Shown in pieces: positions 6,446 to 45,387 of a stretch of 57,429 nt of DNA. The stretch is from a virus (lineage: Duplodnaviria > Caudoviricetes). Location: positions 1 through 57,429 of the IMG/VR virus record IMGVR_UViG_3300037427_004775. One strand, given 5' to 3'. Each line of letters begins with the position of its first letter. The first letter of the stretch is position 1. The notes beneath the pieces were generated by a model, which saw only the letters and a program-made list of their open reading frames with translations, was not told the DNA's origin and searched no databases. Position numbers and translations under genes: made by a program.

Positions 6446-6451
6446 TTAATC

Positions 6452-10663: not shown

Positions 10664-10982
10664 GTTCTTCTTCTCCTTCTTCAGGTCTAGCTATTAGATT
10701 CTCTTTACTTTCAATGCTCATCATTGTATTCGCGACATAAAGTATAGAATCCCTAGACATAGATACGTCTCTTAGTACCTTTCTGACTTCTGGAGAATTA
10801 TAAAATAAGGGGGTCTCCAAGATTTTTGTTATAGATCCATAACGTGAATCAAGCACATCTAAACATTCTCCTATCGCGTCTTCAACGCGAAGGATAACCC
10901 TGGCAAACTTAAAAGCGTAAAATAGTGACACTGATGTAACAAGAGAGAGAATAGCTGTGCTAATTATCCACGGTGATATCAT
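10653..10982 (-). CDS. Small protein with N-terminal transmembrane helix
   Basis: Hydrophobic WIISTAILSLVTSVSLFYAF; overlaps both neighbours. Confidence 0.7.
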   Translation of the reverse strand: MISPWIISTAILSLVTSVSLFYAFKFARVILRVEDAIGECLDVLDSRYGSITKILETPLFYNSPEVRKVLRDVSMSRDSILYVANTMMSIESKENLIARPEEGEEELGD

Positions 10983-12142
10983 TTTATATACTCGTAGTAT
11001 ATTTTATTATAATGCTCCTTGATTGCTGACATACTGTGAGATGTCCTTAGTTTTTCGCCGAGATCATCGGCCCACTCTGCAGGCATTGCGGGTTTCTTAT
11101 AAAATGTTTTTAGTCTTTGTTTGAAATTTTCTTCAGATGGTTCTGCCCATTTTGAGCCTTTAATAAAGATGTGACCATCAATTCTAGAATCGTGAACCTC
11201 TTCTAGTCTATAGCTTACACTTATAAACTTTCCCCTATTCATAAAATCTAAGTGCCCAGACCAGTTAGTTGCGATCACAGGAATTTTATGTACTGAGGCT
11301 TCTAAAATTGGTAGCCCGTAACCTTCGCCACGAGTCAAGCCAATAAAACATTTGATTGACTTATCCCTATAAAGACTAGTCATTTCATCACCGGACATCA
11401 AGCCGTGCAATAAGCTTACTCTGGGATAATCTCCTGTTCTTACTTCTGAAAGTAGTCCTTTTAAAGCTCTCTTCGTCAAAATCCTATCAAGTGTTGTGGC
11501 TCTTCCGGAAGATGCCTTGATAACAAGGCCTACATCTTTATTCCCTTCAAATGTTTCACAGAACCACTTGACTGTATTGTATGTATTTTTTCTATCATTG
11601 TATGGATTGTCACCTGTTAGTGTCCCCACCATTAAAAAATTAAAATCAGTGTTTAAATTTAAATCAATTTCTTCAACATTTTCTTTGCTACATTCGTCAA
11701 AATATGCTTCTGGAATTACTTCGATTGGTGTTGTTACGTTTCCAGAGTTGCAAATAGTCTGTTTTGTATGGACAGATGGAACTATAACTAGATCCATCTT
11801 GTTGCATGCAGTGACCCACTCTGGGTGGCAGATATCTGTTTCTACAGCTGCTGTAACACCCACATTGAATCTTGCTAGCATTGGATCCCACTCATTAGGT
11901 AACTGTATTTGAAATGATACGTCTGCACCCTGTCTTTCTAGCGGCCCAGAACAACCCATTATTTGACCTACAAGACCGTCTAAACCGTCTGGGTTTATAT
12001 ACCACGTTGTATTTCCCCACGGTGTTAATTGAGTCGATATCTTTGCATCTTCAATACTTGATACCCACTTAAAAACTTGTCTTGCATGCTCCCCATAACC
12101 TGATGCTGTGATCAGTGGGCCTCTTACGACAATATTCTTCAT
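10979..12142 (-). CDS. Glycosyltransferase, GT-B fold (GT4-like)
   Basis: SGYGEHAR N-terminal motif; TRGEGYGLPILEA...PVIATNWSGHLDF (EX7E). Confidence 0.92.
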   Translation of the reverse strand: MKNIVVRGPLITASGYGEHARQVFKWVSSIEDAKISTQLTPWGNTTWYINPDGLDGLVGQIMGCSGPLERQGADVSFQIQLPNEWDPMLARFNVGVTAAVETDICHPEWVTACNKMDLVIVPSVHTKQTICNSGNVTTPIEVIPEAYFDECSKENVEEIDLNLNTDFNFLMVGTLTGDNPYNDRKNTYNTVKWFCETFEGNKDVGLVIKASSGRATTLDRILTKRALKGLLSEVRTGDYPRVSLLHGLMSGDEMTSLYRDKSIKCFIGLTRGEGYGLPILEASVHKIPVIATNWSGHLDFMNRGKFISVSYRLEEVHDSRIDGHIFIKGSKWAEPSEENFKQRLKTFYKKPAMPAEWADDLGEKLRTSHSMSAIKEHYNKIYYEYIK

Positions 12143-12148
12143 TTTATT

Positions 12149-13393
12149 CTAGAGCTCCTCGCAACGCCATGGTTGATATCCTTCTTTAAAACTTTCGATA
12201 CACTCAGATAAAGTTTCGTTCCAATCATCGACCGTATCTTGCATGTTAAACTGTGTTTTTGCATAGTCCTTTACTTTCTTACTTAGTTCGCTTTTTTCTT
12301 CTGGAGATAGGCTGTATAGTTTCATAATAGCATCAGAAATTGTTTCAGCAGACACATAATCTTCATAGATGTAAGGAACACCTTGTGAACCAACAAGAGT
12401 TCGATATTCTATAGGCATAGCAACGCCATTATGCGTTCCATCGCGATGATCCTCCACTTGTCTAGTTAGACCACCGGTCTTTGGTGCAATAATTGGTGTG
12501 CCGCCCATCATAGCTTCTAGTGTCCCTAGACCAAATCCCTCAGCAAGGGAAACATTAATACAGAAATCACTAATGTTATAGAGAATGTTTATTTTATCAA
12601 ACTCTAGTCTTTCACTTGAAAACCAGACAGATTCATTAATTCCAAGTTTTTCTGCAGCTGCAAATAGATTAGGACCTTCACCATCTAAAGGATCCGTATG
12701 CATAATTAGACACGCTTTTCTATGACCGTGCTCCTTTTCTAAATTATCCATAAATAGTTTCCATGCCCATAAAAGATCATTTGGTCGTTTTCGCTTGGCA
12801 TTTCTATTAATCCAAATCCCAACAAACCAATCTTCTTTTCCGGGACCCAGAACTTGTTTTCTCAGCTCGAGCTTTTCATCTTTGGGAATCTCATTATAGA
12901 TTTCCTTGGGAACAGCATGAGGAATGAAATTGGTTTTTTCTGGATGTCTGTCTCTTATAAGGCTATATGTCATATGAGAGTGGCAGTTTATAAGGTCGGT
13001 TGCCTGATAAATTGCATCATTAAACTCTGGGTATGGGCCGTTGTCCCAAACATGCCACCAAACTATTGGACAAATTTGGTGTACTTCATCTTCCATTTCA
13101 AATAACCAGATAAAAAATCTAGGGTCAGTGAACAAAAACAGAGCATCTGGTTTTTCTGTAGCTAGTGCCACTCTCAGAAGTTCAGGATCACCAAAACCAT
13201 CAATAGGTTTGATAATAAAATCTTCATTGACAACAACAGTTTCATAATCACTATGCTTTAAAGCAGCTCCAAATTGTCTAAACGACCAGTCTCCTTTTTC
13301 AAGGAGGCCTTGGATTAAAAATCGGCTCTGAGTGCCGACTCCGCTTGTGCTTAAAGCATGATCTGAAAGCATTAAAACTTTTTTCTTTTTCAA
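12149..13393 (-). CDS. Glycosyltransferase, GT-B fold (GT4-like)
   Basis: NRNAKRKR; SLAEGFGLGTLEAMMGGTPIIA (EX7E). Confidence 0.92.
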   Translation of the reverse strand: MKKKKVLMLSDHALSTSGVGTQSRFLIQGLLEKGDWSFRQFGAALKHSDYETVVVNEDFIIKPIDGFGDPELLRVALATEKPDALFLFTDPRFFIWLFEMEDEVHQICPIVWWHVWDNGPYPEFNDAIYQATDLINCHSHMTYSLIRDRHPEKTNFIPHAVPKEIYNEIPKDEKLELRKQVLGPGKEDWFVGIWINRNAKRKRPNDLLWAWKLFMDNLEKEHGHRKACLIMHTDPLDGEGPNLFAAAEKLGINESVWFSSERLEFDKINILYNISDFCINVSLAEGFGLGTLEAMMGGTPIIAPKTGGLTRQVEDHRDGTHNGVAMPIEYRTLVGSQGVPYIYEDYVSAETISDAIMKLYSLSPEEKSELSKKVKDYAKTQFNMQDTVDDWNETLSECIESFKEGYQPWRCEEL

Positions 13394-13445
13394 TTTTACT
13401 CCAGTAATCTTGTGAAATCATACAATTTTAAAATAAAGTAGTTAA

Positions 13446-14282
13446 TCACGTACAGTATTTTGTATCCTTATAAGGACAAAACTTACAAGAATTTCTATTT
13501 TTAAGATAAAACCCTTTTGAAACAGCCTTTATCATATTTGACATTATTTTTGTAGCTCTATCTAAAGATTTTGGACCTACTGAAACCGGAACTAGTTCGC
13601 ACATATTCCCTGGTTTCCCGCCTCGCTTCAATAGTATGAAACCGCACCTTATGTCTTTTAACGGAACATTGTGTTTTCTAGACCAGAAATGCTTATATAA
13701 AATAAGCTGAGCTGTCATTAGAATATCTTGCTTTTTTTCTCGACGCCACCCATAAGATTGCGATGTTTTCCAGTCAAGAATCCATATCTTGTCATTTCCT
13801 CGCTTGTCTGGCGCTACAATAACTGCATCTATAAATCCCTTGAACTTTACAAATGAACCCTCTATTGGCTCATAAAGTTGTTCCTCGGCTTTAACAGTTT
13901 CCCAGCCTGGGAACGTCTCATCCAAAAAGCCTAACACGTCGTCCCACATGTTAGTTGCCCAGTCACACCATTCTTCGACTGGTGCGTGCTTATACCAACC
14001 TGGCATTTTTTCATACCACTCAGGTTCTCCGAAGCCGTGTTTTTCCCATGCTGTGGTTATATCATTTAACAATTTTTTCTTGTCAATTTGCTTTGTTTCT
14101 AGAAGTGTTTCACAACCCTCATGGACAGCAGTTCCGAAGTCTAGGTATGGGGAGGGCTCGAACATATCAATCTTATCAACATAGGTTAACTTGTGTCGAT
14201 ATGCGCATTCTTTCCAGTTTTTAATTTCTGAAAATGAAACGTGTGGTTTGCCAGTAGGTAAAAGTTTATTTTGGTCGGTCAT
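13446..14282 (-). CDS. PD-(D/E)XK exonuclease, Cas4/RecB-like with 4-Cys cluster
   Basis: HVSFSEIKNWKEC, FGTAVH, GFIDAV...ILDWKTS, QLILY, C-terminal CKFCPYKDTKYC. Confidence 0.9.
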   Translation of the reverse strand: MTDQNKLLPTGKPHVSFSEIKNWKECAYRHKLTYVDKIDMFEPSPYLDFGTAVHEGCETLLETKQIDKKKLLNDITTAWEKHGFGEPEWYEKMPGWYKHAPVEEWCDWATNMWDDVLGFLDETFPGWETVKAEEQLYEPIEGSFVKFKGFIDAVIVAPDKRGNDKIWILDWKTSQSYGWRREKKQDILMTAQLILYKHFWSRKHNVPLKDIRCGFILLKRGGKPGNMCELVPVSVGPKSLDRATKIMSNMIKAVSKGFYLKNRNSCKFCPYKDTKYCT

Positions 14283-14349
14283 AATGTTGTTCTTTTGATG
14301 GTTTAAATCCTATAGTTAATTGTATACCGACTATTGGAGTTGTTTCAAA

Positions 14350-14700
14350 ATGTTTGCAAAGCTGGTCGCGGGAATTAGTTGTTTAATAGGTGTTCACACG
14401 CTTGTTTGGTTTTCAACAAATCTTCAATTTGTTAATGAAAAAATGGCAGACAAAAGTCTGGAAATAGCTATCGGGTTAGGCATTCCAATTTCTCTACTTG
14501 CATATTTTGGAACAAGATACACGTATCAATCACTAGAAAATTCAGCATGGGCAGTTAGATTTGTAGCTTTTGGTACTTCATACTTAGTTTTTCCATTCTT
14601 GACATGGTGGATGCTAAAAGAAACGATGTTTACTCCAAAAACACTTACATGTATCATATTGTCACTTACAATTGTAGCTATTCAAATTTTCTGGAAATAG
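14350..14700 (+). CDS. Small 4-TM membrane protein (SMR/DMT-like)
   Basis: Four hydrophobic segments, C-terminal LKETMFTPKTLTCIILSL; ATG at 14350 with GGAG RBS (ORF track starts at 14320). One of only two convincing plus-strand genes. Confidence 0.7.
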   Translation: MFAKLVAGISCLIGVHTLVWFSTNLQFVNEKMADKSLEIAIGLGIPISLLAYFGTRYTYQSLENSAWAVRFVAFGTSYLVFPFLTWWMLKETMFTPKTLTCIILSLTIVAIQIFWK

Positions 14701-14701
14701 C

Positions 14702-15592
14702 TCAGTATTTTACTATTGTACTCTTTAAATCATGCTTGGGCGTGTATTTTAAAATAGCACTGGCTTTACCTATGTTTGCCAATGTTTCTTTAGATTCCCC
14801 GATTCTGTCGGCAACTCGAATATGAGGCCCTCCAATCATTTCAGAAATATCTATAATCGATGTGCTAACCCCTGTCCCAACATTGAAGACCTCGCCGTAT
14901 GCGTAGATTGAATCAACTGATATTGCTAGAACTGACGCATCGACAATGTCATCGATATAAGTAAAGTCCCTCTTTTGAAATCCAGAGCCCACTACGGTAT
15001 GCGGTGTTCCTGCAGCTCTTTGCCGCTTGAACAAACCGATAACAGGAGCATAGTGTCCCTTCTTTGGTTCGCGGGGGCCATACACATTAAAGTATCTCAA
15101 AATCACAGTCTCTAAGTTATATAAGTTACTATAGAGTCTACAAACTTCTTCTCCCATCCATTTAGACAGGGAGTACGGGGTTTGACAATCAACAGGCATG
15201 TCTTCTGTAAATGGGGGTCTGTTGGACTTTCCGTAACAGGATGAGCTGGCTGAATAGATTATTCTTTTTACGCCGGCCCTCTTGGAAAACTCACATACCA
15301 TCTGTGTGCCTAAAACATTAGTTTCAAATGCGCTACCCGGTTTGGAAACCGAAGGTTGTATTCGTGCCTTTGCTGCGGCATGAAAAACTATTTCGACACC
15401 TTCATATAGTGGTGCGGTTGAATTGTCTAAAATACTTTTAGTGTGGTATTCTATTCCTTCAAACTCATAGAATTCTTCATTTTCCTCTGCAGACTCGTCA
15501 TCAATAACAATAACAGTGTGACCTAAATTTTTCATTCGTAAGGCCAAGTGTGATCCAACGAACCCCTTGCCTCCTGTTACTATAACTTTCAC
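14702..15592 (-). CDS. NAD-dependent nucleotide-sugar epimerase/dehydratase (extended SDR)
   Basis: VTGGKGFVGSHL, ASSSCYG, YSLSK (YxxxK), LRYFNVYGP, RDFTYIDD. Confidence 0.95.
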   Translation of the reverse strand: MKVIVTGGKGFVGSHLALRMKNLGHTVIVIDDESAEENEEFYEFEGIEYHTKSILDNSTAPLYEGVEIVFHAAAKARIQPSVSKPGSAFETNVLGTQMVCEFSKRAGVKRIIYSASSSCYGKSNRPPFTEDMPVDCQTPYSLSKWMGEEVCRLYSNLYNLETVILRYFNVYGPREPKKGHYAPVIGLFKRQRAAGTPHTVVGSGFQKRDFTYIDDIVDASVLAISVDSIYAYGEVFNVGTGVSTSIIDISEMIGGPHIRVADRIGESKETLANIGKASAILKYTPKHDLKSTIVKY

Positions 15593-16455
15593 TCGTCGTC
15601 TTCCTTGCTAACTGCACGGCCAATCATATTTTCCCAATCTCTGTCAGATCTTAAGCGATTATTTTTTCTATTGACAGCTGTTAATAGCGAAGCATCAACC
15701 CTTAAAATTGATGATAGATAGATTATTGCATTAAGGTCTTTTGGAAAACAATGACCGCCGAATCCAAAGTCGCCATCTGGGCCTGGTACAGATAGGTGGC
15801 TGCGGCCTATTCTTTTATCATGAAGCGCATACTCCGTTACCTTATCGTAATCTATATCGAGCTTTTGACAAATATGATACATTTCATTAGCAAATGTTAC
15901 CTTAGTTGCAAGAAAACAGTTAGTAAAGTACTTGACCATTTCAGCAGTATTTGACCCGGTCTTGATAATAGGGACTGTTGGAAAGACTTTTCTAAATACT
16001 GATTTCACCACAGTGCTTGAAGGCCTTGGGCCTCCGATAATAATCCTTGTTTGTCCCTTGAAGTCTTCGATGTAATTAGCTTCAGTTAAAAACTCTGGAT
16101 TGAAAACTACTGAACAGTGCCTCGATTCTTTGTTGAGTCTTTCTGAAGTGCCTGGTGGAACTGTTGACTTCAAGACTAGAATCTTATCGTTTCCCTCCTT
16201 TTCTGCTAATTCATCGATTTGTGCAACAACAGTATCTACTATACTTAAATCACATTCTCCCGAAGATCGCATTGGTGTGGGTAGACAAATAAAAATAATG
16301 TCTGTGCTTTCAACTAGGTCATCTAGACTACGGCAAGAAGAATTTTTTGATGGATCCTTATCATATGTCAGAACCTCCAAGTGATTTGAAAAGCCTTCCC
16401 TAACAGCAGAACCTACAAATCCCTGCCCTACAATTCCTATTCTATTTGTGTTCAT
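15589..16455 (-). CDS. ugd: UDP-glucose/GDP-mannose dehydrogenase, short form lacking the C-terminal domain
   Basis: GQGFVG, ICLPTP, KSTVPPGT, FNPEFL, AEMVKY, GFGGHCFPKD; only 288 aa. Confidence 0.88.
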   Translation of the reverse strand: MNTNRIGIVGQGFVGSAVREGFSNHLEVLTYDKDPSKNSSCRSLDDLVESTDIIFICLPTPMRSSGECDLSIVDTVVAQIDELAEKEGNDKILVLKSTVPPGTSERLNKESRHCSVVFNPEFLTEANYIEDFKGQTRIIIGGPRPSSTVVKSVFRKVFPTVPIIKTGSNTAEMVKYFTNCFLATKVTFANEMYHICQKLDIDYDKVTEYALHDKRIGRSHLSVPGPDGDFGFGGHCFPKDLNAIIYLSSILRVDASLLTAVNRKNNRLRSDRDWENMIGRAVSKEDDE

Positions 16456-16768
16456 TCACGTCCTTCTTTTCCTTTTCTATGAAATATACCATATCATTCA
16501 AAGCCTTATCTCCGATGTAAACATCATAATGAGGTTTTCCCAAGTGTAACTCATGATATTTTGCGCCCCACTTATTTAATTGCTCACTAGTAAGTTCTGT
16601 CCAATCTATCCCGGTCGTTGAGCCGCGGGCAGTAAAATAAATAATTGTATTTCCAGATGCGTAGAGTCTGTTAACTAGCTTTATTCTATCAGTGAAAGGT
16701 ATTGCTTCTTCGTATTTTCCATCTGTAATTGAACAGATGGTTCCGTCTATGTCAAAACAGTAAATCAT
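16442..16768 (-). CDS. Minimal HAD-superfamily phosphatase
   Basis: FDIDGTIC, FTARG, GKPHYDVYIGDKA. Confidence 0.88.
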   Translation of the reverse strand: MIYCFDIDGTICSITDGKYEEAIPFTDRIKLVNRLYASGNTIIYFTARGSTTGIDWTELTSEQLNKWGAKYHELHLGKPHYDVYIGDKALNDMVYFIEKEKKDVNEHK

Positions 16769-16808
16769 GTTATCCTCGTAAATTTATACAGTAAACCTAG
16801 AGAATTGT

Positions 16809-17546
16809 TCAGGATTCTAAAAATCTACCCACTCTAGATCGTATACTGTTAATTGAAGTTTCAGATTCTTCTTCTGTGTTTATTACAAGGAAAAAATTTG
16901 ATTTAAACATCTTTTCATACTCAAGCCTGTTTCGATCAACTGCTGACCAAGATCGTTTAACAGTTCGAGGCGTTAATGTCCGGCCGGGTGTTTTTAACTT
17001 AGATCGTTCACGATTTCTTCGTTGTGATTCTTTTAAGGGAACATGAACGTAAATCATTGCAACATCATAACCGCTTTCTTTTGCATTTACTACTTGTTGC
17101 TTTATATCTCTAAGCGAACCGCCTGTGCCGTCTACAACATAATCTTCTTTGTTTAAACAACATGCCTCCCGGTCTTTTTTAGCTTGTGCGCGTGCTTGAT
17201 TAAATAGCGTCATATCTCTGCTAAGTGTACTTCGAAGGCGTTCATAGTCTGGTTCTAATCTTGACATTGTTTCTGTGTCACCTGATTGTTCTGCTGCCTT
17301 GTATTCAGAACGTATTGGCATGTATTCATCCATTACTGATTCTCGATCCATGGGGATGCATTCAGCTTTCATTGAGGCCTCATACTGATCGTCTGGGTTA
17401 ATGACACGCATTTTCTGCTTTAAGCCTAGCGATCTAATTACGTGTGACTTTCCTGAACCTGGGCCGCCTGCCATAAATATGATTTTTGGCGATTTGCACT
17501 CTTTGCTCTCTAATATGAGCTGTCTTATGTACTCACGTAATGACAT
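16809..17546 (-). CDS. Zeta-toxin-like P-loop kinase with N-terminal leader peptide
   Basis: IFMAGGPGSGKS, INPDD, VVDGTG, MIYVHVPLKESQRRNRER; AGGAG RBS. Confidence 0.8.
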   Translation of the reverse strand: MSLREYIRQLILESKECKSPKIIFMAGGPGSGKSHVIRSLGLKQKMRVINPDDQYEASMKAECIPMDRESVMDEYMPIRSEYKAAEQSGDTETMSRLEPDYERLRSTLSRDMTLFNQARAQAKKDREACCLNKEDYVVDGTGGSLRDIKQQVVNAKESGYDVAMIYVHVPLKESQRRNRERSKLKTPGRTLTPRTVKRSWSAVDRNRLEYEKMFKSNFFLVINTEEESETSINSIRSRVGRFLES

Positions 17547-17564
17547 TTCAACTCCTAGAATTAA

Positions 17565-18518: not shown

Positions 18519-19000
18519 TTTAAACCATACCTCTCTTTAATTAAGATCCAGCGATTATTTAGTTCGCTTATGTCACCTGTATTAAATAGCTCTGAATTTG
18601 AAAAATAGTTAATCCCATAATACTTTGGATTATCTTTTGTTTTTCCTGTTCTTCGCTTAAAAGATACGGGTACACCTTTTAGATTATAAAAAATAGAACA
18701 AGCAGTTCGGTGAGTTCCACCATTTAAAAGATTATCAGACGGATCTACTTCTAGTGGAAATTTTTCAGAAAATCCATTTATCTCAAAAGATCTAGCCAAC
18801 ATACCAAGATTTATGGTTGATTGATATGGGTCTCTTTTTTTTCTTGAGTTTATCCAGCTATGATAAAGCTTTATTCCATTTTGATTCAAGTTAGCCATGT
18901 TTTCTAAAGCTAGTAGTATTACAACTATTTGAAAAGAATAAAGCTCTCCTCTTGACACTTGCAAGCCTAGCAATTTTTCTATTGGCCAGACTTCAATCAT
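18515..19000 (-). CDS. ParB/sulfiredoxin-like domain protein
   Basis: SFEINGF...PLEV...LLNGGTHRTAC resembles the ParB-N GxHR motif. Confidence 0.55.
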   Translation of the reverse strand: MIEVWPIEKLLGLQVSRGELYSFQIVVILLALENMANLNQNGIKLYHSWINSRKKRDPYQSTINLGMLARSFEINGFSEKFPLEVDPSDNLLNGGTHRTACSIFYNLKGVPVSFKRRTGKTKDNPKYYGINYFSNSELFNTGDISELNNRWILIKERYGLK

Positions 19001-23915: not shown

Positions 23916-23949
23916 TATATTCCTCAAATTAATTTTATTGTGAAAAGTC

Positions 23950-24861: not shown

Positions 24862-24870
24862 TTCGAACCC

Positions 24871-26187: not shown

Positions 26188-26198
26188 TACCGACTCTT

Positions 26199-27089: not shown

Positions 27090-28858
27090 TGTTTTCTTCT
27101 CAAAGACTTATAGACCAAGCATCTAGCACCTGGATCAAGTGCTGGTGGCTTATCATATATTTTTTCATATTGTGGGCCCAGCATAGTTTCAATTTTATCT
27201 ACTTTTTCATTTTGGTCTATACTATCATAAACTGTGATTGCCACGTGCGGATAAAAAAACTTTAAGAGTTCCGGGGCTGTTTTTAAAATATCTAAACTAT
27301 AATTGAACACGTCTATTACAAGTAGACCTACAAATTTAGTAAAGTCATAGTTTTCACGGCATTGTCCTCGGGACCATGGTGTTAAGATACCATCCCTTTC
27401 ACTAATATTGGCAGAATTAACAACTTCCCTATGAACTGCGGCTATTATTTCATCTAATGGCGCAGAAAGTGAGGTATTTGTGTCAGGCACATCTTTTATT
27501 ACTTCTTTTAAGAAATCCATTCTTTCTACAGTATCGGGCGTATAAGTTACTTTTCTCATGGTTTTATATTTGTCACTTCTAAGAAAAGCTTTGGTTCCGT
27601 AATCCAGATCATTCGGCATTGATCCATAGCGATAGTTTCCGTCTATTATCCGTTGCGGTTCACCTATACTTTTGCAAATTGACGACACTTCTTTTCCATC
27701 ACTAGTTTTCCAGTTTAGGAACATTGCTATTAAATCTTTCTTAGCATTATGATTAACGATATCCTCGCGAGGATCACCTAAAGTAAATGCTCCACGGGAT
27801 GCACCAGGATTGTTTTGTGAATTTCTCAACCCTATGTCGATCATTTTTAATTGTGGTTCAAAATTAAAAGACATCAAACAGTTATTGAATGCTGTTAAGT
27901 AAACATTCTCATTTTGTAATCCGGCTCCTACTATAACGTGAGAATCTTTATTGTCTAGCTTGGCTATTGCTTCCAAATATTCAACATTATAAAAACACCC
28001 AGTCCTTTTAATTTCCTCAAATATTTCTTCACCATCTAGACCCATAAACTCAAAATTAACACCCTTGTAAGAAAAAGTTGTTGTATCTATCGCAACTGTA
28101 ATCATTTTAGCTTTCATTTCTTCCCAATACTTAGAAGAAGATTCAGGGCGGTATGTTTTCATTTCATCAACATAGATTTTTTTCATTTTTGTTTGATGTT
28201 TTGCTTGCCATATAAGTCCACTCTCTGATAGCCATACATCACAAAATGATTTTGGTGCAGCTATTACATTTCCTATGCCTCTGCTAAAAAACCACTGTGA
28301 TGTGTCATTAAATGCATTTTGGTCAGCGGTCCATTCACTTTTACTAAAACGGTGACCCCATTTTGAGAACCATTTATTTCCAAAATCTCTAGCTGCAGAT
28401 GTGCCTTTTTGTATAATGAGGCCGGAGGCAAACTTATATTTGGCGTTCTTTGCCCGAGCTGCTACATCAAAACTATTTTCTTCACAAAAAACCTCAAGTT
28501 CTTTTAGAGGATTTCTTACAATAGAATCTGCGTCTATCCAAACCAGCGTATCATCTTTTTCAAAATATTTATCTCTGCTCGGGCCGAATACTGTTGTTCT
28601 AAAGCCGGCGCAATATCGCTTTAATGCTTCAGATGGCATAAAATGATCAAGAGCAATAACTTCTATTTTAGTTGAAGGATTGGCCTTGAGTATCAAATCT
28701 ATAACTTTTTTAGACTCAATAGAATCTGTTTGGTCGGCGTTTAATAATAGAAATATGTTAAAATTACTATCGGGAGAATTTACATAAATAGATCTGGCTA
28801 AGTGAATTCCCCACCATGCATATTTGATATCAAATGCTGTAAAATATTGATAGCTCAT
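27086..28858 (-). CDS. Fusion of nucleotide-diphospho-sugar transferase (GT-A, GT77/GT8-like) and degenerate FkbM-like domain
   Basis: LVWIDADSIV, ASGLI, WTADQNAFN; C-terminal VIVGAG...FNFEP...LLVIDV. Confidence 0.7.
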   Translation of the reverse strand: MSYQYFTAFDIKYAWWGIHLARSIYVNSPDSNFNIFLLLNADQTDSIESKKVIDLILKANPSTKIEVIALDHFMPSEALKRYCAGFRTTVFGPSRDKYFEKDDTLVWIDADSIVRNPLKELEVFCEENSFDVAARAKNAKYKFASGLIIQKGTSAARDFGNKWFSKWGHRFSKSEWTADQNAFNDTSQWFFSRGIGNVIAAPKSFCDVWLSESGLIWQAKHQTKMKKIYVDEMKTYRPESSSKYWEEMKAKMITVAIDTTTFSYKGVNFEFMGLDGEEIFEEIKRTGCFYNVEYLEAIAKLDNKDSHVIVGAGLQNENVYLTAFNNCLMSFNFEPQLKMIDIGLRNSQNNPGASRGAFTLGDPREDIVNHNAKKDLIAMFLNWKTSDGKEVSSICKSIGEPQRIIDGNYRYGSMPNDLDYGTKAFLRSDKYKTMRKVTYTPDTVERMDFLKEVIKDVPDTNTSLSAPLDEIIAAVHREVVNSANISERDGILTPWSRGQCRENYDFTKFVGLLVIDVFNYSLDILKTAPELLKFFYPHVAITVYDSIDQNEKVDKIETMLGPQYEKIYDKPPALDPGARCLVYKSLRRKQ

Positions 28859-30171
28859 CTCTTTTTCTTTTGTGGGCCTTTCATATGAACTAGAACAGTT
28901 TCTGGGTTTGTGTCTATGCCATCAAACTTCTTTGGAAATGTTTTAACAACTACTTTTTCTTTGTGTCGCTCTAAAACATTACCCAATTCATTTTGTGCGC
29001 TCAACCAGACCCATCCGTGTTTTCTAGTTTCTCTTTCCCACTCTTCTATTATTTTAAAATTATCTGGTGTATTTTTGACATATATCATTCCAGCATTAAA
29101 TCTTAGTGGATTATCAATTTTGATTCTTGCACAAAAATCAGTAGACTCGAAAAAGTCAAAAAGATCATAGACATTATCTTCTAGATAGACATCTCCATCG
29201 ACATAAAAAACATCTGAACATGTTTCACTTAAGATGTTCTTTGTATTCCACGTTCTACAACTTTCACAATATGCCCTTTCTTCTTCAAAGTTTTTGAAAT
29301 CTGAATATGTGTCGTCTATGAAGCTGATATTTGAGTGACATCTAAATCTTTTTTTGGATTCATCACTTAAGTTTAGTGATAACATCTTTACTGGAACTTC
29401 TGGATGGTATGTTTCTAGTGATACAATTAGATTCATCATTATGTCGACATACGGTTCATTACAAACTGTTAATATTTGAAGGGTCTTTCCGACTGGATTG
29501 GTTTTTCTGGCACAAAACCATACCGAATCTTCCATTAGGTCTTTGAATAGAAATCTTAGATTTGATGAGTTGTATGCAGACGCAACTTGAGAAAAACTCA
29601 GCTCATAAGCATTCCACTCCTTTTTTTGAAATTCCTGTGCGTCGAAACCATAATCGTGACCTAAAATTATGTCGCCTGTCTTTAATGACTTGGAGAACTT
29701 AGAAACTTCTTCAGCTTTCTTTCCCCCATCACAAAACAGAACAGTAATATAGTCAGGGTTACTAATTAGATCGATTATTTCTTTTCCGTCGTCGGAAAAA
29801 ACGTCTTTGATAGTTAATTCAACTTTTAATTCTTCAAATATTTCTTTTACATCTTTAGATATTAATCTATCGGTTATATCATATGTGCAAAGACTATAGT
29901 CTAGGTTGTGGGCTTTGGCAAACGTATCTAAAATAACAGTCAAACCTCCCTTAAATGTGCCGATTTCAATAATCTTTACAGGCTTGTTTTGAAGAGACAA
30001 GAAAGAAAAAAGCTTATTGAATGATGAGTTTATATTGAAATTTTGTGCAGCAAATAGTTCAAAATTGACGTCTTTTTCAGAACCGTCTTGACCAATATAC
30101 TTTAAAATTTGCAAAGCTTTTGAATGCTTGGATTCATCAGGGTGTTTAATTTTTTTATAGAACTCTTTCAT
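28855..30171 (-). CDS. Fusion of SAM methyltransferase and GT-A sugar transferase
   Basis: IIEIGTFKGG, FCDGG, GDIILGHDY; C-terminal FYVDGDVY, FNAGMIY, VHMKG. Confidence 0.78.
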   Translation of the reverse strand: MKEFYKKIKHPDESKHSKALQILKYIGQDGSEKDVNFELFAAQNFNINSSFNKLFSFLSLQNKPVKIIEIGTFKGGLTVILDTFAKAHNLDYSLCTYDITDRLISKDVKEIFEELKVELTIKDVFSDDGKEIIDLISNPDYITVLFCDGGKKAEEVSKFSKSLKTGDIILGHDYGFDAQEFQKKEWNAYELSFSQVASAYNSSNLRFLFKDLMEDSVWFCARKTNPVGKTLQILTVCNEPYVDIMMNLIVSLETYHPEVPVKMLSLNLSDESKKRFRCHSNISFIDDTYSDFKNFEEERAYCESCRTWNTKNILSETCSDVFYVDGDVYLEDNVYDLFDFFESTDFCARIKIDNPLRFNAGMIYVKNTPDNFKIIEEWERETRKHGWVWLSAQNELGNVLERHKEKVVVKTFPKKFDGIDTNPETVLVHMKGPQKKKR

Positions 30172-30172
30172 T

Positions 30173-31060
30173 CTAGTCCCTAGAAAGCATAAAGCTTCTT
30201 ACTATTTTCTTACTAGTACCCTCTAGGTTTTCCCTACAAGCAAATCGAAGCAGATCATCTCCGGAAATTTCTCCGTATATCCCTCTGTGGAAGCCGTCAG
30301 TCATAATTGATGTCACGGGTTCATAACCAGCTTCTTTAAAAAGGCGAGGTTGTGGCACCGGAGTTGCAACTGTGAACCTCGGAATGAAGCCTAGCTTAAA
30401 ATATTCTTTCAATATTGCTTCAAAGTCATTATCTTTTCCATAAAAATGTGGATGCACCTCTAACAGTATTGATATCGGACCTTCATTGTTTGAGAAGTAG
30501 TCTAGGCCTCCCCGGAAGATTGAAACTTCATGTCCCTCAACATCCATTTTTATAAAGTTTGGAAAATCTCTGTCTTTGAAAAAGGTGGACAAACTATAGG
30601 CATCAACTGAAATCTTGCTTGTGCTATGTTTCGTCTTGTGAACACTACTCAAGTTAGGTTTGTCAGCCTGCCAGAACTCTAATGTCGAATCAGAATCTGA
30701 TATTGCACATTGTGTTATTTCACATCTTTTATCATAATTGTTCTCTTTAATATTTGCACGAAGAAGCTCTATATTATTTGGATCAGGTTCGACGGCGTAT
30801 ACCTTCCCGGTGGTGCCGACGCCGCGGCACATATACAATGTAGTATATCCTATGTTGCCACCCAAGTCTAGACAAGTCATGCCTTCAGAAACAACATTTT
30901 GCAATATTCCCATAAAGGCTTTTTCACGGTAACCTTGTGAATAAAGCGCACCTGAAATACCCCCGTCGTATGGGTTTAGATGCATGTTAAAACCATCGAT
31001 ATTTTTCATTAGCCATTTTTCAGACTGTGTTGTTTCTTCAAATAAGCTTTTATTAAACAT
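30173..31060 (-). CDS. FkbM-family methyltransferase
   Basis: CLDLGGNIGY, VYAVEPDP, FIKMDVEGHE, LLEVHP. Confidence 0.92.
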   Translation of the reverse strand: MFNKSLFEETTQSEKWLMKNIDGFNMHLNPYDGGISGALYSQGYREKAFMGILQNVVSEGMTCLDLGGNIGYTTLYMCRGVGTTGKVYAVEPDPNNIELLRANIKENNYDKRCEITQCAISDSDSTLEFWQADKPNLSSVHKTKHSTSKISVDAYSLSTFFKDRDFPNFIKMDVEGHEVSIFRGGLDYFSNNEGPISILLEVHPHFYGKDNDFEAILKEYFKLGFIPRFTVATPVPQPRLFKEAGYEPVTSIMTDGFHRGIYGEISGDDLLRFACRENLEGTSKKIVRSFMLSRD

Positions 31061-31784
31061 TTAGATCTCCCATGGGAATTGTTTTTATTTTATCAGCTAG
31101 CAAGCTTTTTGATGACAAGTTGATAAATTCTATGTTATTATTTTCTCCAAACTCTACTATAAAGTCTTTCAACTTCTGAGTTGGATGTTCTGAGTCTGGT
31201 GATCTTTCATCAGGTTTACATGATTTTATAATATCTGGTATTTGAACTTTATCATATTCTGGATTATCTGTCCAAAAATATTTACTAGAATACATGTCAA
31301 CGCCTAGAAAGTAAATTCTATCATAGTTCATTCTTGCCATCATATCTAGAATTACAGTTAGACTAGCATTGTTACTAACAGCTACAGCCTGTGGATGTAA
31401 TTTATAAGCTCCGGAAGTTTCTTGTCTATAGTACTTCGGATAAGCATAAATTGATTTATATAGTTCTGGCTTTACATAGTTTAGCAAGTGAGATCTGGTA
31501 CCGTCAATTATCCAGTTTACAGACTTATACTCTTCAGCCTTTTCAATACAGAGTCTTTCAAAGATAGGGCCAGATCGATGAGCTTTTACTTCGACATGAT
31601 AATAGTCAGGAATAATCTCATTGTGTATTATCCAACTATTAGAAGTCCAGACATCGAGTTTATCTAGCTTTTTTAAAAAGTCTTTGTCAATATCTTTTAT
31701 AGAAGGGCCGCAACCTAAAAAAATTGCCTGAGAATTCTTTTTTGAATCTGGTAATCCTAAGAAATGATTTATCTTGATGTTCAT
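31053..31784 (-). CDS. Second Maf/sialyltransferase-like transferase
   Basis: AIFLGCGPSI, TSN, IYFLGVDM, FINLS match the MAF_flag10/GT42-type pattern. Confidence 0.65.
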   Translation of the reverse strand: MNIKINHFLGLPDSKKNSQAIFLGCGPSIKDIDKDFLKKLDKLDVWTSNSWIIHNEIIPDYYHVEVKAHRSGPIFERLCIEKAEEYKSVNWIIDGTRSHLLNYVKPELYKSIYAYPKYYRQETSGAYKLHPQAVAVSNNASLTVILDMMARMNYDRIYFLGVDMYSSKYFWTDNPEYDKVQIPDIIKSCKPDERSPDSEHPTQKLKDFIVEFGENNNIEFINLSSKSLLADKIKTIPMGDLNV

Positions 31785-32693
31785 TTAAACCTTTATATTT
31801 TCAAATACATTTAAATAATGGTCTGCAATATGATCAATGTTCAATTCTGAATTTTCATACGTATTTTTTTGAACAGCAGAGTAATCTAATTCTGGTGGGT
31901 GATAAAGTCTGACAGGGTCGAAATTCCATGGCTCTTCTATTACAATCTCGGCATCGATGCCAGCGATTTCTGGAGTTCCACCGGAAGAAGAACAAACTAT
32001 TTGGCATCCACTAGCTCTAGCATCAATTACAACATTGGGGCAATGATCTAACCATGCAAGATGAAGAAACTTTTTACTTCGCTTATACAGCGATATCAAG
32101 GTGACCCAATCTAATGGGCCTACATAAAAAATTCGAGGGTGATCAATTTTATAGTCAGGATTGTCGCCGGCGATAACTAGACATGCATCTACTGGTGCCT
32201 TTTCAAGAAAATAACCTACATTATCTTTTAAGCGCTTGTGGGGGCGCCAGCTCGATGCACAACTCCAAACCTCAGAAAAATTATTAATAACCGGATGTTG
32301 AATTTCCAGTATTTTATCTATCACATCTAAACAGGTTCCATTCCTAATCACATAAGAATTGTCATGTTCTCCAAAGTATTTTTCCGTTAGCTTTTTATTA
32401 AAATCAGATTGAAAAATTACTGCATCTGATATTTTATAAGACATTGAAATTGGTGCATTTAACTTATCATAGTCTTGTGCAGAATTAAAGTAGATTCCAT
32501 CTAACCTTAGTGCCATTGGTTTAAACTTGACGTTTAAGTTAGTCATAATAAATGAAAGTATAACATCTACTTCTTCTGCAGTTTCTGGGGTTATATTATG
32601 CCCCTTTGTAACCAATGACTTTCCTAGTTTTTTACCAAAGCTATTTGGGCCTGATGATGATGAGAAGTTTACATTGTCTAAATAGACATTCAT
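31785..32693 (-). CDS. Glycosyltransferase, GT4-like
   Basis: SGPNSF, RLDG, VIFQS, WRPHKR, DHCPNVVIDARASG...SGGTPE; start MNVYLD at 32693 (ATGA overlap). Confidence 0.88.
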   Translation of the reverse strand: MNVYLDNVNFSSSSGPNSFGKKLGKSLVTKGHNITPETAEEVDVILSFIMTNLNVKFKPMALRLDGIYFNSAQDYDKLNAPISMSYKISDAVIFQSDFNKKLTEKYFGEHDNSYVIRNGTCLDVIDKILEIQHPVINNFSEVWSCASSWRPHKRLKDNVGYFLEKAPVDACLVIAGDNPDYKIDHPRIFYVGPLDWVTLISLYKRSKKFLHLAWLDHCPNVVIDARASGCQIVCSSSGGTPEIAGIDAEIVIEEPWNFDPVRLYHPPELDYSAVQKNTYENSELNIDHIADHYLNVFENIKV

Positions 32694-33400
32694 TTTAAGA
32701 ACCCCCGAGCACGAACCATGTTTATTGTTGCAATTTGCTCCATTTCGCACCAATTTCTTTTATCTTCTGGGATTGAAGATGAGTCAATATTATAAAGATA
32801 ACAAACTTCATCAATATAATTTCTATTTTTTGTTAAAAATAAAAGTGGCAACATTAAAGCTTGATCGTAGCCTCTTTTGAACCACGTTCCATTGACATGT
32901 TTAAAGTTATGATCAGAAATTTTAGTCAACAAACTTGAGCGAAATGTTCTAAAATGTGATGTACACCATGGCCACTGATATGGGTTTACACCTAGCGGCA
33001 TTGGCCTGGAGATATTCATACTATTTATGTCCCACTGATGACCGGTCCAGACAACGTCGGCGCCATTTTCGTAAGCAGACAAAACAAGTTTTACGGTATT
33101 ATTATTACACAAAGAATCATCACCGTCAATTGTCCCGATTACGATCCCATCTTCATCTTGATATTTTCTAGCAATCTCAATGATATTTCTAAGCGCGAAT
33201 TTTTTTTCTTCATTCTTAATAATAGTAAAACGCTTATCTTCTCCTACCAGTTCTACTAATCTATCTGATGTATTGTCAGTTGATATATCGTCTACTAGAA
33301 CATGTTCCCATCTATCGTCATTTTGACTCTTGACAGAATTTATTAGAGTTTCTAGATTGTTTGAAGCATTATAGCATGGTGATATAAAAACTAACTTCAT
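32690..33400 (-). CDS. Glycosyltransferase family 2
   Basis: FISPCYN, VLVDDISTD, IDGDD. Confidence 0.92.
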   Translation of the reverse strand: MKLVFISPCYNASNNLETLINSVKSQNDDRWEHVLVDDISTDNTSDRLVELVGEDKRFTIIKNEEKKFALRNIIEIARKYQDEDGIVIGTIDGDDSLCNNNTVKLVLSAYENGADVVWTGHQWDINSMNISRPMPLGVNPYQWPWCTSHFRTFRSSLLTKISDHNFKHVNGTWFKRGYDQALMLPLLFLTKNRNYIDEVCYLYNIDSSSIPEDKRNWCEMEQIATINMVRARGFLK

Positions 33401-35319
33401 TATCTATTTCTCGCAATCCAATCGCTTACTAGAGGGGAGTGGTCTCTATCGATACTTAGATGAGGGGTAGGTTGATTAAAATCTACCTTTGAGTGAAATA
33501 TCCACCCACCCATCTCAGAAGATAGTTTACTTGCCTGTGCATCCATTTCTTCTTCTGTTACCTCAGACCATGCTTTGTCAAAAAACATGTTATTTTCTGA
33601 TGTGTCTTCTTGAATTATGTCATACAGGCTTTGCCAGTGTTGTGACCAATAATCACGATATGTTCTAATTTTTCTTTTAATATTGAACCACGAATAGTGT
33701 TGTACAGATGGGAGTTGAGACAGGACCTGATTTAACCAGTTTTCATATTGAACCTTAATATCATCATTTTTTAATCCCTGGATCCTTGCTTGATTTACAT
33801 CATCTGTAATAAAGTTTGCAAATTGTATTGGTTCAAAACTATCTGATCTTATATAGTCACAGCCGTCAGAGCCTGGAGATGAGTATAGATTTCCATCATC
33901 GTCAAATTTTCTTAATTTTGCTGGAATTCCATGGGTTATATGAGGCAGATTTTTACTCAACCTCCACTTCCATGGGTTTATGTCCATGCGAACCTTCTCT
34001 GGTCCTCCCCAGTACTCGATCACCGGAAGGGCTATCAATTCTACATTTGCTGGAAAATTTCTAACTAAACTAGTAATTTTTTCATAGTCACTTTCATGAA
34101 CTATTTCATCTGAATCTTGTTGCCAACAAAATTTCTTAGTGCACATTGATCTTGCCAAAGCTTTTTGTGCGCCATCAAATACAGCGAATCTCTTATCACT
34201 CCAATCGCGGGCTTGTTGGTGAATAACTAATTTATCATTCTCACTTGATAACTCTTGTAATTTTTCCCATGTTCCATCTGATGAACCGCCATCGACTACT
34301 ACAACTTCATCACAAAATCCGAGCATTGACCTGATAGATGCTTCGAAAGGATAATCCTGGTCAATGCAGTCCTTGGTCGTCGTATATCCGGATATTGGTG
34401 GGTTGTATGTCATGTCAAACTTCACACCATTCCAAAATCTATCTCGAGCAGCATAAAGATAAGCGACTGTATCGAATTCATCATCTGTATTGAACCAAAT
34501 TTCGTCTTTATGCTGAACAAAATCATTTAGTTCTAGTTCACAACCAAGTAGTTTTGCTTCAATGACCATTCTGGGACACGTGTCATTACCTTTGGGTAGA
34601 TAAACAAATCCTTCAGCAGCGGCAAGTTTTTTCAGTACTTCTGTATGTGGTAATCCCCAAACGACTTCGTACTCTTTATTATTGTCTTTACACCATTGCT
34701 CAGCATCATCTGCACCCTTTATCCAGGAGTTCGAACCCAAGACTAACCAGCCTGAACGCTTATCGTTTTTCTTTAAATTATTGAGAAGCTTGACATCTAA
34801 AAATGTTCTATCACTAAAAACTGATGACAATACTACATTATTTTTCTCTGATAGGAATGGATACATTTTATGATACAGTTCCATTTGCTTTTCTGACATC
34901 CACCAAAGCGTGGTAGCTCCATAGTAGAATGCTGAAATTATTTTTCCATTCATCGATTCTCTACAATCACATGGAGAATTTTCACTATACTGATGTTTTT
35001 CAGGTGATCGATATTTGCAAAACTTGTAATCATATTCTAGAATTGAATATTTGACATTTGCAACAATTGATGGAATCAACTCAAGATTCATTGCAGAAAA
35101 ATTACCAAAAACCCAGTATGCACCTGACAGAGCCTGAAGAGATTCCATAGAGACTTGTTGAGATCTTAGTTTCAAAATCCTCATTGGGGAGGATTCAATC
35201 AAAGCTTCTGATGTGAGCTCTGCTCCTCCTGCATAGTCCTCAGCAAACATGTCTGAAACAAACACAATTTCTACTTGACGTGTATCAATATTTCCATTCT
35301 GATCCGGGCTTACTAGCAT
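33400..35319 (-). CDS. Bifunctional glycosyltransferase (GT-B N-terminal + GT2 C-terminal)
   Basis: GGAELT and DTCPRMVIEAKLLG (GT-B); DEVVVVDGGSSDGT and QDSDEI (GT-A). Confidence 0.88.
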   Translation of the reverse strand: MLVSPDQNGNIDTRQVEIVFVSDMFAEDYAGGAELTSEALIESSPMRILKLRSQQVSMESLQALSGAYWVFGNFSAMNLELIPSIVANVKYSILEYDYKFCKYRSPEKHQYSENSPCDCRESMNGKIISAFYYGATTLWWMSEKQMELYHKMYPFLSEKNNVVLSSVFSDRTFLDVKLLNNLKKNDKRSGWLVLGSNSWIKGADDAEQWCKDNNKEYEVVWGLPHTEVLKKLAAAEGFVYLPKGNDTCPRMVIEAKLLGCELELNDFVQHKDEIWFNTDDEFDTVAYLYAARDRFWNGVKFDMTYNPPISGYTTTKDCIDQDYPFEASIRSMLGFCDEVVVVDGGSSDGTWEKLQELSSENDKLVIHQQARDWSDKRFAVFDGAQKALARSMCTKKFCWQQDSDEIVHESDYEKITSLVRNFPANVELIALPVIEYWGGPEKVRMDINPWKWRLSKNLPHITHGIPAKLRKFDDDGNLYSSPGSDGCDYIRSDSFEPIQFANFITDDVNQARIQGLKNDDIKVQYENWLNQVLSQLPSVQHYSWFNIKRKIRTYRDYWSQHWQSLYDIIQEDTSENNMFFDKAWSEVTEEEMDAQASKLSSEMGGWIFHSKVDFNQPTPHLSIDRDHSPLVSDWIARNR

Positions 35320-44958: not shown

Positions 44959-45040
44959 TTAAATCTCCGTTATGTGATTTTGTACATGTACTGAGTTTTG
45001 CATTTTAATAAAACATCGATCATTAACATGAGGTTTATAC

Positions 45041-45304: not shown

Positions 45305-45340
45305 TAGTAATTATCGCCTTCAGAAACTATTTGTTCTTAC

Positions 45341-45367: not shown

Positions 45368-45387
45368 ATAATCTGTATTAAAAATGT

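Follow-up and report, generated by a model that had tools for sequence, protein, structure and literature searches.

A glycan gene island with fixed ends, a variable middle and a predicted ulosonic-acid module in an uncultured marine jumbo myophage

The DNA considered here, positions 1 to 57,429 of the IMG/VR virus record IMGVR_UViG_3300037427_004775 (Duplodnaviria; Caudoviricetes), is one linear viral contig of 57,429 bases, which in its full length is called the window below; nearly all of its open reading frames (ORFs) lie on the minus strand. Its most conspicuous feature is an island of glycan genes at positions 10979-35319 (about 24 kb), which sits directly between fibre-like genes and baseplate genes and consists of 27 tightly packed minus-strand ORFs with two gaps of more than 40 bp (52 and 419 bp). 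About ten glycosyltransferase-type domains are encoded in the island. Sugar activation is represented by a short NeuB, two NeuA-like cytidylyltransferases and a protein resembling phosphoheptose isomerase; in addition, there are five methyltransferase domains (three firm, two weak) and one radical S-adenosylmethionine (SAM) enzyme. The genes at the island ends belong to the core of the phage lineage, and the approximately 20 kb between them are a swappable set of sugar-activating, sugar-joining and methylating genes. It is tentatively proposed that the products decorate a protein of the virus particle. An earlier note on this DNA, made from the letters alone, had described a glycan gene block of this size between baseplate and fibre genes, a description that stood, as did its count of at least nine glycosyltransferase-type domains, several of which are weak or below family cut-offs. 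It had not listed the PD-(D/E)XK nuclease gene at 13446-14282, which lies within the range.

The window is a fragment of the genome of an uncultured marine jumbo myophage. The completeness of the contig was estimated by CheckV at about 16% of the genome, and the phage genome should therefore measure roughly 350 kb. The phage identity follows from the gp6- and gp25-like baseplate proteins, PhoH and 51 related IMG/VR loci, which were collected with the gp6-like protein as query. In the following, G000 denotes the record of the window, G001 to G010 denote contigs of related viruses, and L-numbers denote loci on such contigs or on bacterial ones. Regarding the gp6-like baseplate protein, the closest deposited phages were Microcystis phage Mel-JY01, a 484-kb uncultured phage and the Flavobacterium 'immuto' phages (Immutovirus), with 29-33% identity. 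Letter-perfect copies of island DNA were found on short contigs from four further marine metagenome runs of four studies, with 29 to 30 of 30 bins covered; among the listed carriers of island sequence there was no RNA data set. That this is a phage locus and not a host capsule locus, as had been claimed before, agrees with the baseplate, fibre-like and PhoH genes and with the conservation of the island ends in many viral contigs. The relative L025 (record G009, 163,948 bases) is classed in IMG/VR as a provirus, the other records as linear.

The genes at the island ends were counted in the 18 related loci with at least 7 kb of DNA upstream of the baseplate gene. The pair of GT4 glycosyltransferase genes (10979-13393), which forms the baseplate-side boundary, was present in 15 of these loci and the nuclease gene in 14, with the same gene order. 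Homologues of the pair with 29-34% identity are encoded by immuto, Mel-JY01 and LR756508.1; in the cultured phages immuto and Mel-JY01 the unit of nuclease and two glycosyltransferase genes is followed by GT2, methyltransferase and aminotransferase genes. The fibre-side boundary is an enzyme of 639 aa with two glycosyltransferase domains, the best 120 listed homologues of which were 60-82% identical over at least 95% of the length, on contigs of up to 293 kb. It is encoded by one gene in G003, G006 and G007 and by two separate genes in G001 and G010; a tblastn search with the 639-aa protein against deposited phages gave no match. The interior of the island differs between relatives. G006 carries an island as in the window, with 42-90% identity per gene, whereas the island of G007 (about 35 kb) has in common with it the dual enzyme, the GT2 protein, a GT4-like protein, a trio of NeuB, cupin and HAD proteins, and little else. 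The islands of G003, G001 and G002 measure about 20, 24 and 28 kb, respectively, and G002 and G004 encode a different, full-length NeuB (33% identity). The island thus has the properties of a hypervariable, fibre-adjacent 'host recognition cluster', which is a descriptive class and not a homologous family.

The 639-aa boundary enzyme was recognised by the Pfam GT2 models (1.2e-6/4.8e-6) and was modelled with AlphaFold (AF2) at a predicted local distance difference test (pLDDT) score of 91.2. As modelled, its N-terminal GT-B domain resembles GT4 enzymes (Z 20.0, root-mean-square deviation (rmsd) 3.4, 273 aligned residues), the closest folds being sucrose-phosphate synthase, BshA, MshA and SenB. 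For residues 302-617 the best Foldseek/VIA match was SunS/ThuS (E 3.8e-9, Z 14.9, rmsd 3.8, 210 aligned residues, 11-13% identity), and among the 50 fold matches listed SunS, with two entries, was the only GT-A fold.

Among the interior enzymes, the N-terminal part of the 590-aa fusion protein (27086-28858) was likened to GT8 on the strength of Atlas structure matches over residues 1-240, with template modelling (TM) scores of 0.70-0.77 depending on the match, and its C-terminal part on Atlas feature matches of 0.91-0.93 to FkbM clusters; the nearest Atlas clusters are from giant viruses and phages. The FkbM protein at 23950-24861 cross-matches the G006 orthologue of this fusion. Its N-terminal helix-extended-helix motif resembles SAP (SAP_new25 1.5e-5, 25 bits, below the 26.3-bit cut-off), an uncommon feature among sugar methyltransferases that hints at contact with nucleic acid. 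The several methyltransferases of the earlier note were recovered as the three firm and two weak domains, and the NeuB, the two cytidylyltransferases, the epimerase and the radical SAM enzyme that it had named were all found by family searches (Table 1).

The centre of the island holds what is predicted to be an ulosonic-acid module. Its synthase lacks the SAF domain and belongs clearly to PF03102 (242.2 bits against a cut-off of 22.1), but reaches neither of the equivalog cut-offs (NeuB_NnaB 257 against 399.65 bits, PseI 188.1 against 340.25 bits), with a match that stops at profile position 272 of 329. Among solved structures, 6ncs (290 aa) comes nearest to it (1.8e-47), whereas the classical enzymes score about 1e-27 to 1e-29. 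The first cytidylyltransferase matched NeuA proteins of the PDB at 1.3e-30 and 1.2e-23 and KdsB at 9.6e-6; both CTP_transf_3 proteins are nearer to NeuA than to KdsB, which was absent from the matches of the second, and the PseF equivalog cut-off was not reached. No NeuC-type epimerase, aminotransferase or acetyltransferase was found in the Pfam and NCBIfam scans of the island ORFs, and the sugar is therefore probably not N-acetylneuraminic acid (Neu5Ac), pseudaminic acid (Pse) or legionaminic acid (Leg). Judged from the enzymes present, a non-aminated ulosonic acid built from a sugar phosphate may be made instead. The HAD-like protein encoded within 16442-17546 scored 2.6e-3 and 8.5e-5, below cut-offs, and adjoins NeuB and cupin in G007. 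Homologues of the short, SAF-less NeuB with 47-64% identity occur in SAR86, SAR116, Melainabacteria, Acidobacteriaceae, Microbacteriaceae and others. Regarding the 29 bacterial loci with a short NeuB (L067-L095), a CTP_transf_3 gene was nearby in 16 and a GmhA-like gene in four. Few deposited phage records contain a NeuB homologue (three matches in 50,697, one of the three labelled as a bacterial contig), and no description of a phage-encoded cluster of NeuB, NeuA and sialyltransferase was found in the literature on phages and nonulosonic acids.

The Ugd of the earlier note is present as a Ugd-like dehydrogenase (15589-16455) that covers profile positions 71-296 of 413 and is devoid of the C-terminal UDP-sugar-binding domain. 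A homologue occurs in eight of the 14 loci with at least 9.5 kb upstream. The alignments span about 285-288 residues in L007, L008, L013, L037 and L054 and about 320 in L020, L024 and L042, and the short form is therefore no assembly artefact.

The candidate for transfer of the ulosonic acid is the 220-aa protein at 20894-21556. A profile of 44 of its relatives had GT42 enzymes as its top three PDB matches (CstI 0.0011, 9c08 0.0047, CstII 0.059), the match spanning profile positions 1-160; no Pfam family was matched. A 243-aa protein (31053-31784) with the motifs GCGPS and GVDMY is a possible second enzyme of this kind. It shares only the GxGPS and GxDxY motif regions (profile A3 hmmsearch E 5.6e-5 among 56 proteins; hhalign probability 70.8% over 36 columns), and no match was obtained to Pfam, NCBIfam or the PDB, the last also with profile A4, made from the protein and one orthologue. 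Of the two Maf/sialyltransferase-like proteins claimed previously, the sialyltransferase-like part thus holds at the profile level for one ORF and at the motif level only for the other, and the Maf part fell away: PF01973 had no match at E<=10 in the six frames of the window, although the control genomes were matched, nor in an hmmscan of the ten unassigned proteins at the same threshold. The analogy with Maf proteins, which was to imply direct attachment to Ser/Thr, was given up with it, and resemblance of the sole sialyltransferase-like protein to GT42 would imply capping of a glycan instead. The 317-aa ORF at 17565-18518 (AF2 pLDDT 86.4) was also tried as a transferase and rejected; its fold is similar to nucleoside diphosphate kinase (NDK) and to nucleotidyltransferases, with weak Foldseek matches (JHP933 1.1e-4, NDK 6e-4) and no PDB profile match.

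With respect to export, the island does not have the make-up of a Wzx/Wzy- or ABC-dependent polysaccharide locus, there being no polytopic membrane protein among the 27 minus-strand ORFs, none of which contains a hydrophobic 19-mer scoring at least 1.6; in the G007 island, none of 41 ORFs has more than one hydrophobic segment. The models for the priming transferase Bac_transf (PF02397) and for Wzx (PF01943) had no match in the window and the contigs of four relatives (five contigs, about 565 kb). No exporter, flippase, polymerase or chain-length family appeared in Pfam scans of the island ORFs, in which PF00953 and the Wzy models were not searched one by one. An earlier statement that exporter and priming genes are absent is borne out to this extent, but it had missed the membrane-protein gene at 14320-14700. 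The product of this plus-strand gene has about 116-126 aa and three to four hydrophobic helices (three hydrophobic segments scored), and it is 66% identical to the copy in G006. The mismatches to G006 fall on codon positions one to three as 31/24/65; because the gene is kept in the closest relative and the mismatches are in excess at the third codon position, it is taken as real. It was found only in G000 and G006, its protein has no Pfam match and none to the GtrA (PF04138) or SMR (PF00893) models, and two distant viral relatives of the protein share no gene context with it. Promoter scans were at chance (63 observed and 65.9 expected; 66 and 60.8), as were terminator scans (7 and 12.1; 7 and 10.7).

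Table 1. Features of the window, with the evidence for each assignment (E-values unless stated otherwise)
Feature	Position	Strand	Evidence and remarks
gp6-like and gp25-like baseplate wedge genes	4598-6931	-	phrog_6 1.6e-16; phrog_43 3.4e-6; GPW_gp25 3.6e-5
GT4 glycosyltransferase	10979-12142	-	Pfam 4e-5, below cut-off; PHROG glycosyltransferase 4.5e-19
GT4 glycosyltransferase	12149-13393	-	Pfam 1e-11; PHROG 4e-21
PD-(D/E)XK nuclease	13446-14282	-	PF12705 4.8e-24; beside the GT4 pair
Small membrane-protein gene	14320-14700	+	Inside the 419-bp gap; only opposite-strand island gene
NAD-dependent epimerase/dehydratase and nucleotide-sugar dehydrogenase	14702-16455	-	PF01370 1.5e-52; NDP-sugDHase 211 bits, above cut-off
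P-loop kinase (Zeta/AAA_33-like) and small HAD-like phosphatase	16442-17546	-	PF06414 3.1e-12; AAA_33 1.3e-10
317-aa and 161-aa proteins, no assigned role	17565-19000	-	No family matches to either
Cupin protein	19000-19395	-	Cupin_2 6e-7; adjoins NeuB also in G006 and G007
Short NeuB-family ulosonic acid synthase, 286 aa, without SAF domain	19382-20242	-	PF03102 7.1e-72
NeuA-like CMP-ulosonic acid synthetase	20235-20897	-	PF02348 5.9e-26, 92 bits against cut-off 22.6
GT42-like (CstI/CstII-like) candidate ulosonic-acid transferase, 220 aa	20894-21556	-	152 homologues; profile search
Class I SAM methyltransferase	21522-22229	-	Methyltransf_11 1.5e-12
Second NeuA-like cytidylyltransferase	22222-22953	-	PF02348 4.4e-11, 43.4 bits; PDB CMP-Neu5Ac synthetases 2e-13
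Small HAD-like phosphatase, weak	22934-23341	-	Hydrolase_6 0.011; NCBIfam capsule biosynthesis phosphatase 0.033
SIS-domain protein resembling phosphoheptose isomerase	23328-23927	-	NCBIfam gmhA 1.8e-14, below cut-off; PDB 1.1e-11
FkbM methyltransferase with N-terminal SAP-like motif	23950-24861	-	PF05050 4.7e-13
Radical SAM/SPASM enzyme	24871-26187	-	Pfam 9e-20 and 7.6e-10; 89% identical in G006
DUF6625 protein, counted among the glycosyltransferase-type domains	26199-27089	-	PF20330 7e-49
590-aa fusion, GT8-like GT-A N-terminus and FkbM-like C-terminus	27086-28858	-	GT8-like part from Atlas model only
438-aa fusion, weak methyltransferase-like N-terminus and GT-A-like C-terminus	28855-30171	-	Methyltransf_24 1.7e-3, Nucleotid_trans 8.4e-4, both below cut-offs
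FkbM-family methyltransferase	30173-31060	-	PF05050 2.4e-21
243-aa protein, GCGPS and GVDMY motifs, possible second sialyltransferase-like enzyme	31053-31784	-	Motif level only
GT1/GT4-like glycosyltransferase, weak	31785-32753	-	Pfam 1.1e-5, just below cut-off; 36% identical homologue in G007
GT2 glycosyltransferase	32690-33400	-	PF00535 1.9e-17; 34% identical homologue at the same place in G007
639-aa dual glycosyltransferase	33400-35319	-	N-terminal GT-B (GT4-like) and C-terminal GT-A (GT2); fibre-side boundary
Two large repeat-rich fibre-like proteins, 1065 and 1417 aa	35564-43014	-	Flank the other island side
PhoH	within 43669-46644 / 50649-56958	-	5e-99

Of the two fibre-like proteins, the one of 1417 aa gave partial tblastn matches to annotated tail-fibre and structural proteins and no match to the PDB. 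Over its N-terminal 540 residues, the 1065-aa protein has a counterpart with 47% identity in G006, with no match reported for the remainder; in the more distant G008, an ORF that shares its C-terminus lies about 2 kb from the nuclease gene. Between the baseplate genes, a hydrophobic protein of 317 aa (6995-7948, minus strand) was considered as a Wzy/Wzx protein and rejected as an exporter, on composition alone. It is of low complexity, with 77 Ile, 52 Leu, 33 Ala, 24 Met and 23 Glu; its gene occurs in G000 and G006 only, and the slot holds different genes in other relatives. The cargo on the minus strand at 43669-46644 and 50649-56958 further includes a tubulin/FtsZ-like protein (Pfam 2.5e-6, below cut-off), peptide deformylase, an RNase H-like protein and a PrkA/YeaG-type kinase adjoining SpoVR; the DNA of 43669-46644 showed no similarity to deposited phages. 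A transfer-messenger RNA gene with the tag peptide ANNNYHFESARLAA was detected by ARAGORN at 49283-49654 (minus strand), in a stretch of 1285 bp without a long ORF.

From these parts a pathway can be drawn up, every step of which is a prediction. The SIS protein, the cupin protein or both would isomerise a sugar phosphate, which the short NeuB would condense with phosphoenolpyruvate; the product would be dephosphorylated by a HAD-type enzyme and converted by a NeuA-like enzyme to the cytidine monophosphate (CMP)-sugar. In parallel, a uridine diphosphate (UDP)-uronic or epimerised hexose donor would be produced. On a particle protein made by the phage, the conserved dual glycosyltransferase would start the chain, and this choice of target is the weakest step of the scheme. 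The other glycosyltransferases would assemble a cytoplasmic heteroglycan, FkbM-type enzymes would O-methylate it and the GT42-like enzyme would cap it with the ulosonic acid, the outcome being a strain-variable glycan coat on the particle.

An acceptor owned by the phage, likeliest a virion protein, is suggested because the boundary enzymes are core genes, no priming or export genes were found, the island is placed between fibre and baseplate genes and the GT-A half of the dual enzyme resembles SunS/ThuS. That a fibre, baseplate or capsid protein bears a methylated, sialic-acid-like glycan is given a probability of about 0.4. The complete account, according to which marine jumbo phages of an abundant lineage put glycans on their own particles independently of host export machinery, a SunS-like enzyme starting the chain, a swappable cassette extending it and a non-canonical ulosonic acid capping it, may hold but is doubtful as a whole. 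Several observations weigh against a virion acceptor. The resemblance in fold to SunS reaches a moderate level (TM 0.45 by target), and the enzymes that the GT-B half of the dual enzyme recalls have small molecules and lipids as substrates. The GT42 enzymes of known structure sialylate lipooligosaccharide. The core module adjoins lysis genes in immuto and replication genes in Mel-JY01, not tail genes, and a real small membrane-protein gene lies within the island. The linkage to the nuclease and a hydroxymethylase-type gene cluster in G007 leave room for a role on DNA, and the promoter and terminator scans, being at chance, carry no information on timing. For the closest described islands, moreover, the authors favour modification of the host O-chain in the available part of PMC7029224.

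Such a remodelling of the host envelope is rather unlikely here. The soluble enzymes would act at the inner face of the membrane on lipid-linked O-antigen, capsule or core intermediates of the host and would use its priming transferase, flippase and ligase; the infected cell would thereby acquire an altered surface, for example to block the adsorption of other phages or to keep progeny from sticking to debris. Lipopolysaccharide and lipooligosaccharide loci usually contain soluble enzymes of the GT4 and GT2 families, Ugd, an epimerase, methyltransferases of the FkbM type and GT42-type sialyltransferases, the variable middle resembles the diversity of O-antigen loci, and similar islands of pelagimyophages and cyanomyophages have been read in this way (Zaragoza-Solas et al. 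2020, PMC7029224, as far as available). A constant acceptor owned by the phage, however, fits better with boundary glycosyltransferases that are core genes, at 60-82% identity among the best 120 homologues, and that reach distant cultured relatives. The small conserved membrane protein encoded within the island speaks for this reading, but it matches neither GtrA nor SMR and was found in two records only. Neither priming transferase nor flippase was found in the approximately 565 kb searched, and a lytic jumbo phage would have little time for the turnover of a surface. A further alternative, which appears improbable, is another soluble product or acceptor, that is, a small molecule, a peptide or cytoplasmic proteins of the host, or an effect that consists mainly in draining the host's pools of sugar nucleotides. 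The enzymes nearest in fold to the GT-B half use small acceptors, SunS and ThuS, glycosyltransferases of the glycocin type, glycosylate peptides, and the matches of the radical SAM/SPASM enzyme include peptide maturases; nevertheless, neither a precursor-peptide gene nor an exporter could be recognised among the island genes, and a surface-exposed polymer would better fit the size and variability of the island.

Hypermodification of DNA, in which some or all of the glycosyltransferases would coat hydroxymethylated pyrimidines with sugars against host nucleases while the PD-(D/E)XK nuclease would act on unmodified DNA, is very improbable. According to the accessible part of Pyle et al. (10.1101/2023.12.21.572611), phage GT-A and GT-B enzymes add mono- to trisaccharides, including heptose, Kdo-like (3-deoxy-D-manno-octulosonic acid-like) and uronic sugars, to 5-hydroxymethylcytosine, and some of the clusters lie near structural genes; the same portion of that work describes modification pathways as usually clustered and no DNA glycan that would require about ten glycosyltransferase-type domains. 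The nuclease is always linked to the GT4 pair, and one FkbM methyltransferase bears the SAP-like motif, but the core enzymes are strongly acidic (isoelectric points 4.9, 5.1 and 6.0). A sugar-hypermodification cluster in the sense of Pyle et al., with a hydroxymethylase or dioxygenase within about ten genes, was not found in the window, which represents about 16% of the genome; PF00303 had no match in these 57 kb, and the dioxygenase PF12851 was not searched separately. G007 does encode a thymidylate-synthase homologue that is nearest to CMP/dCMP hydroxymethylases (5.9e-23 and 2.4e-20, compared with 1.3e-11 for thymidylate synthase), adjoined by a protein similar to 5-hydroxymethyldeoxyuridine DNA kinase and a C5 methylase, yet about 110 kb separate this cluster, which includes a methyltransferase of its own, from the island. 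The contigs of five other relatives yielded no hydroxymethylase, but, being fragments, they provide weak evidence. The low estimate rests on immuto, a phage in culture that carries the core module and whose DNA is reported to contain canonical deoxyadenosine (dA), deoxycytidine (dC) and deoxythymidine (dT), with deazaguanine replacing deoxyguanosine (dG), in the available part of 10.1101/2023.04.13.536721. The G007 cluster (L060, contig positions 180000-196000) lies beside DNA polymerase III alpha and also encodes dUTPase, a myo-inositol-1-phosphate-synthase-like protein, an FkbM methyltransferase and the C5 cytosine methylase; its hydroxymethylase-like gene occurs in five further viral contigs.

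If self-glycosylation of the particle is correct, the island would be a counterpart in bacterial viruses of the capsid glycosylation of chlorovirus and mimivirus, with a sialic-acid-like phage surface. With the glycan on the virion, there would be tailed phages in the open ocean with variable sugar coats, which could alter adsorption, stickiness to mucus and particles, grazing and decay, and the layout of fixed ends and a variable middle would be a phage analogue of O-antigen diversity. With the glycan on the host surface, the island would be an unusually large device for superinfection exclusion. Whichever the target, the short NeuB and its SIS, cupin and HAD partners point to an uncharacterised ulosonic-acid pathway, which occurs in SAR86, SAR116 and other bacteria as well. 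Immuto and Mel-JY01, both in culture, carry the core module, so that the question of the target can be tested.

Compared with the papers cited, the new elements are the ulosonic-acid module with its GT42-like transferase, the nuclease-associated layout of fixed ends and variable middle, and the connection to phages in culture. The islands of pelagimyophages and cyanomyophages, as presented in the available part of PMC7029224, are likewise large, non-syntenic and located in the structural region next to tail-fibre genes, and they too are rich in glycosyltransferases and in enzymes of sugar-nucleotide metabolism, UDP-glucose 6-dehydrogenase among them, and carry radical SAM cassettes that vary from one close relative to the next. 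The window appears to belong to a different lineage, the nearest cultured relatives being Mel-JY01 and Immutovirus (29-33%), and it differs further by its fixed boundary glycosyltransferases and by its ulosonic-acid module, the word 'sialic' being absent from the main text of that paper. Moraphages, as far as described in the available part of PMC12619734, are also uncultured aquatic jumbo phages, with four core orthogroups of glycosyltransferases; their predicted hosts are Bacteroidota, and the closest cultured relatives of the window include a Flavobacterium phage. No island architecture is described for them, and 'sialic' does not occur in the text of that paper.

The DNA clusters of Pyle et al., in the available part of 10.1101/2023.12.21.572611, are comparable to the island in their GT-A and GT-B enzymes, the folds of which recall TarP, BshA and MshA, in their helper proteins of the cytidylyltransferase, HAD and kinase types and in their ulosonic and uronic sugars, whereas the window is without a PF00303 hydroxymethylase match and encodes many more transferases. 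Flagellin glycosylation by Maf proteins resembles the predicted pathway in that CMP-nonulosonic acid is used in the cytoplasm without export machinery, but PF01973 had no match in the window at E<=10 and the candidate transferase aligns with GT42. In Campylobacter, NeuB, NeuA and the GT42 enzymes CstI/CstII sialylate lipooligosaccharide. As there, the island brings together genes for a synthase of the NeuB family, a NeuA-like CMP-synthetase and a GT42-like transferase; the window NeuB is short, without SAF domain and below the NeuB and PseI cut-offs, and no NeuC, aminotransferase or acetyltransferase was found with it.

Among viruses that glycosylate their own virions, chlorovirus and mimivirus carry glycans on capsid or fibrils, and the glycosylation loci of mycobacteriophages are far smaller than the island of the window. 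Virus-encoded glycosylation of the virion is documented for the mycobacteriophages Che8, Corndog and Myrna (Freeman et al. 2023, as cited in the available part of PMC12619734). In these viruses the glycans were measured on named virion proteins, whereas for the window a glycan is predicted from the genes; common to both are soluble glycosyltransferases, some of them fused to methyltransferases.

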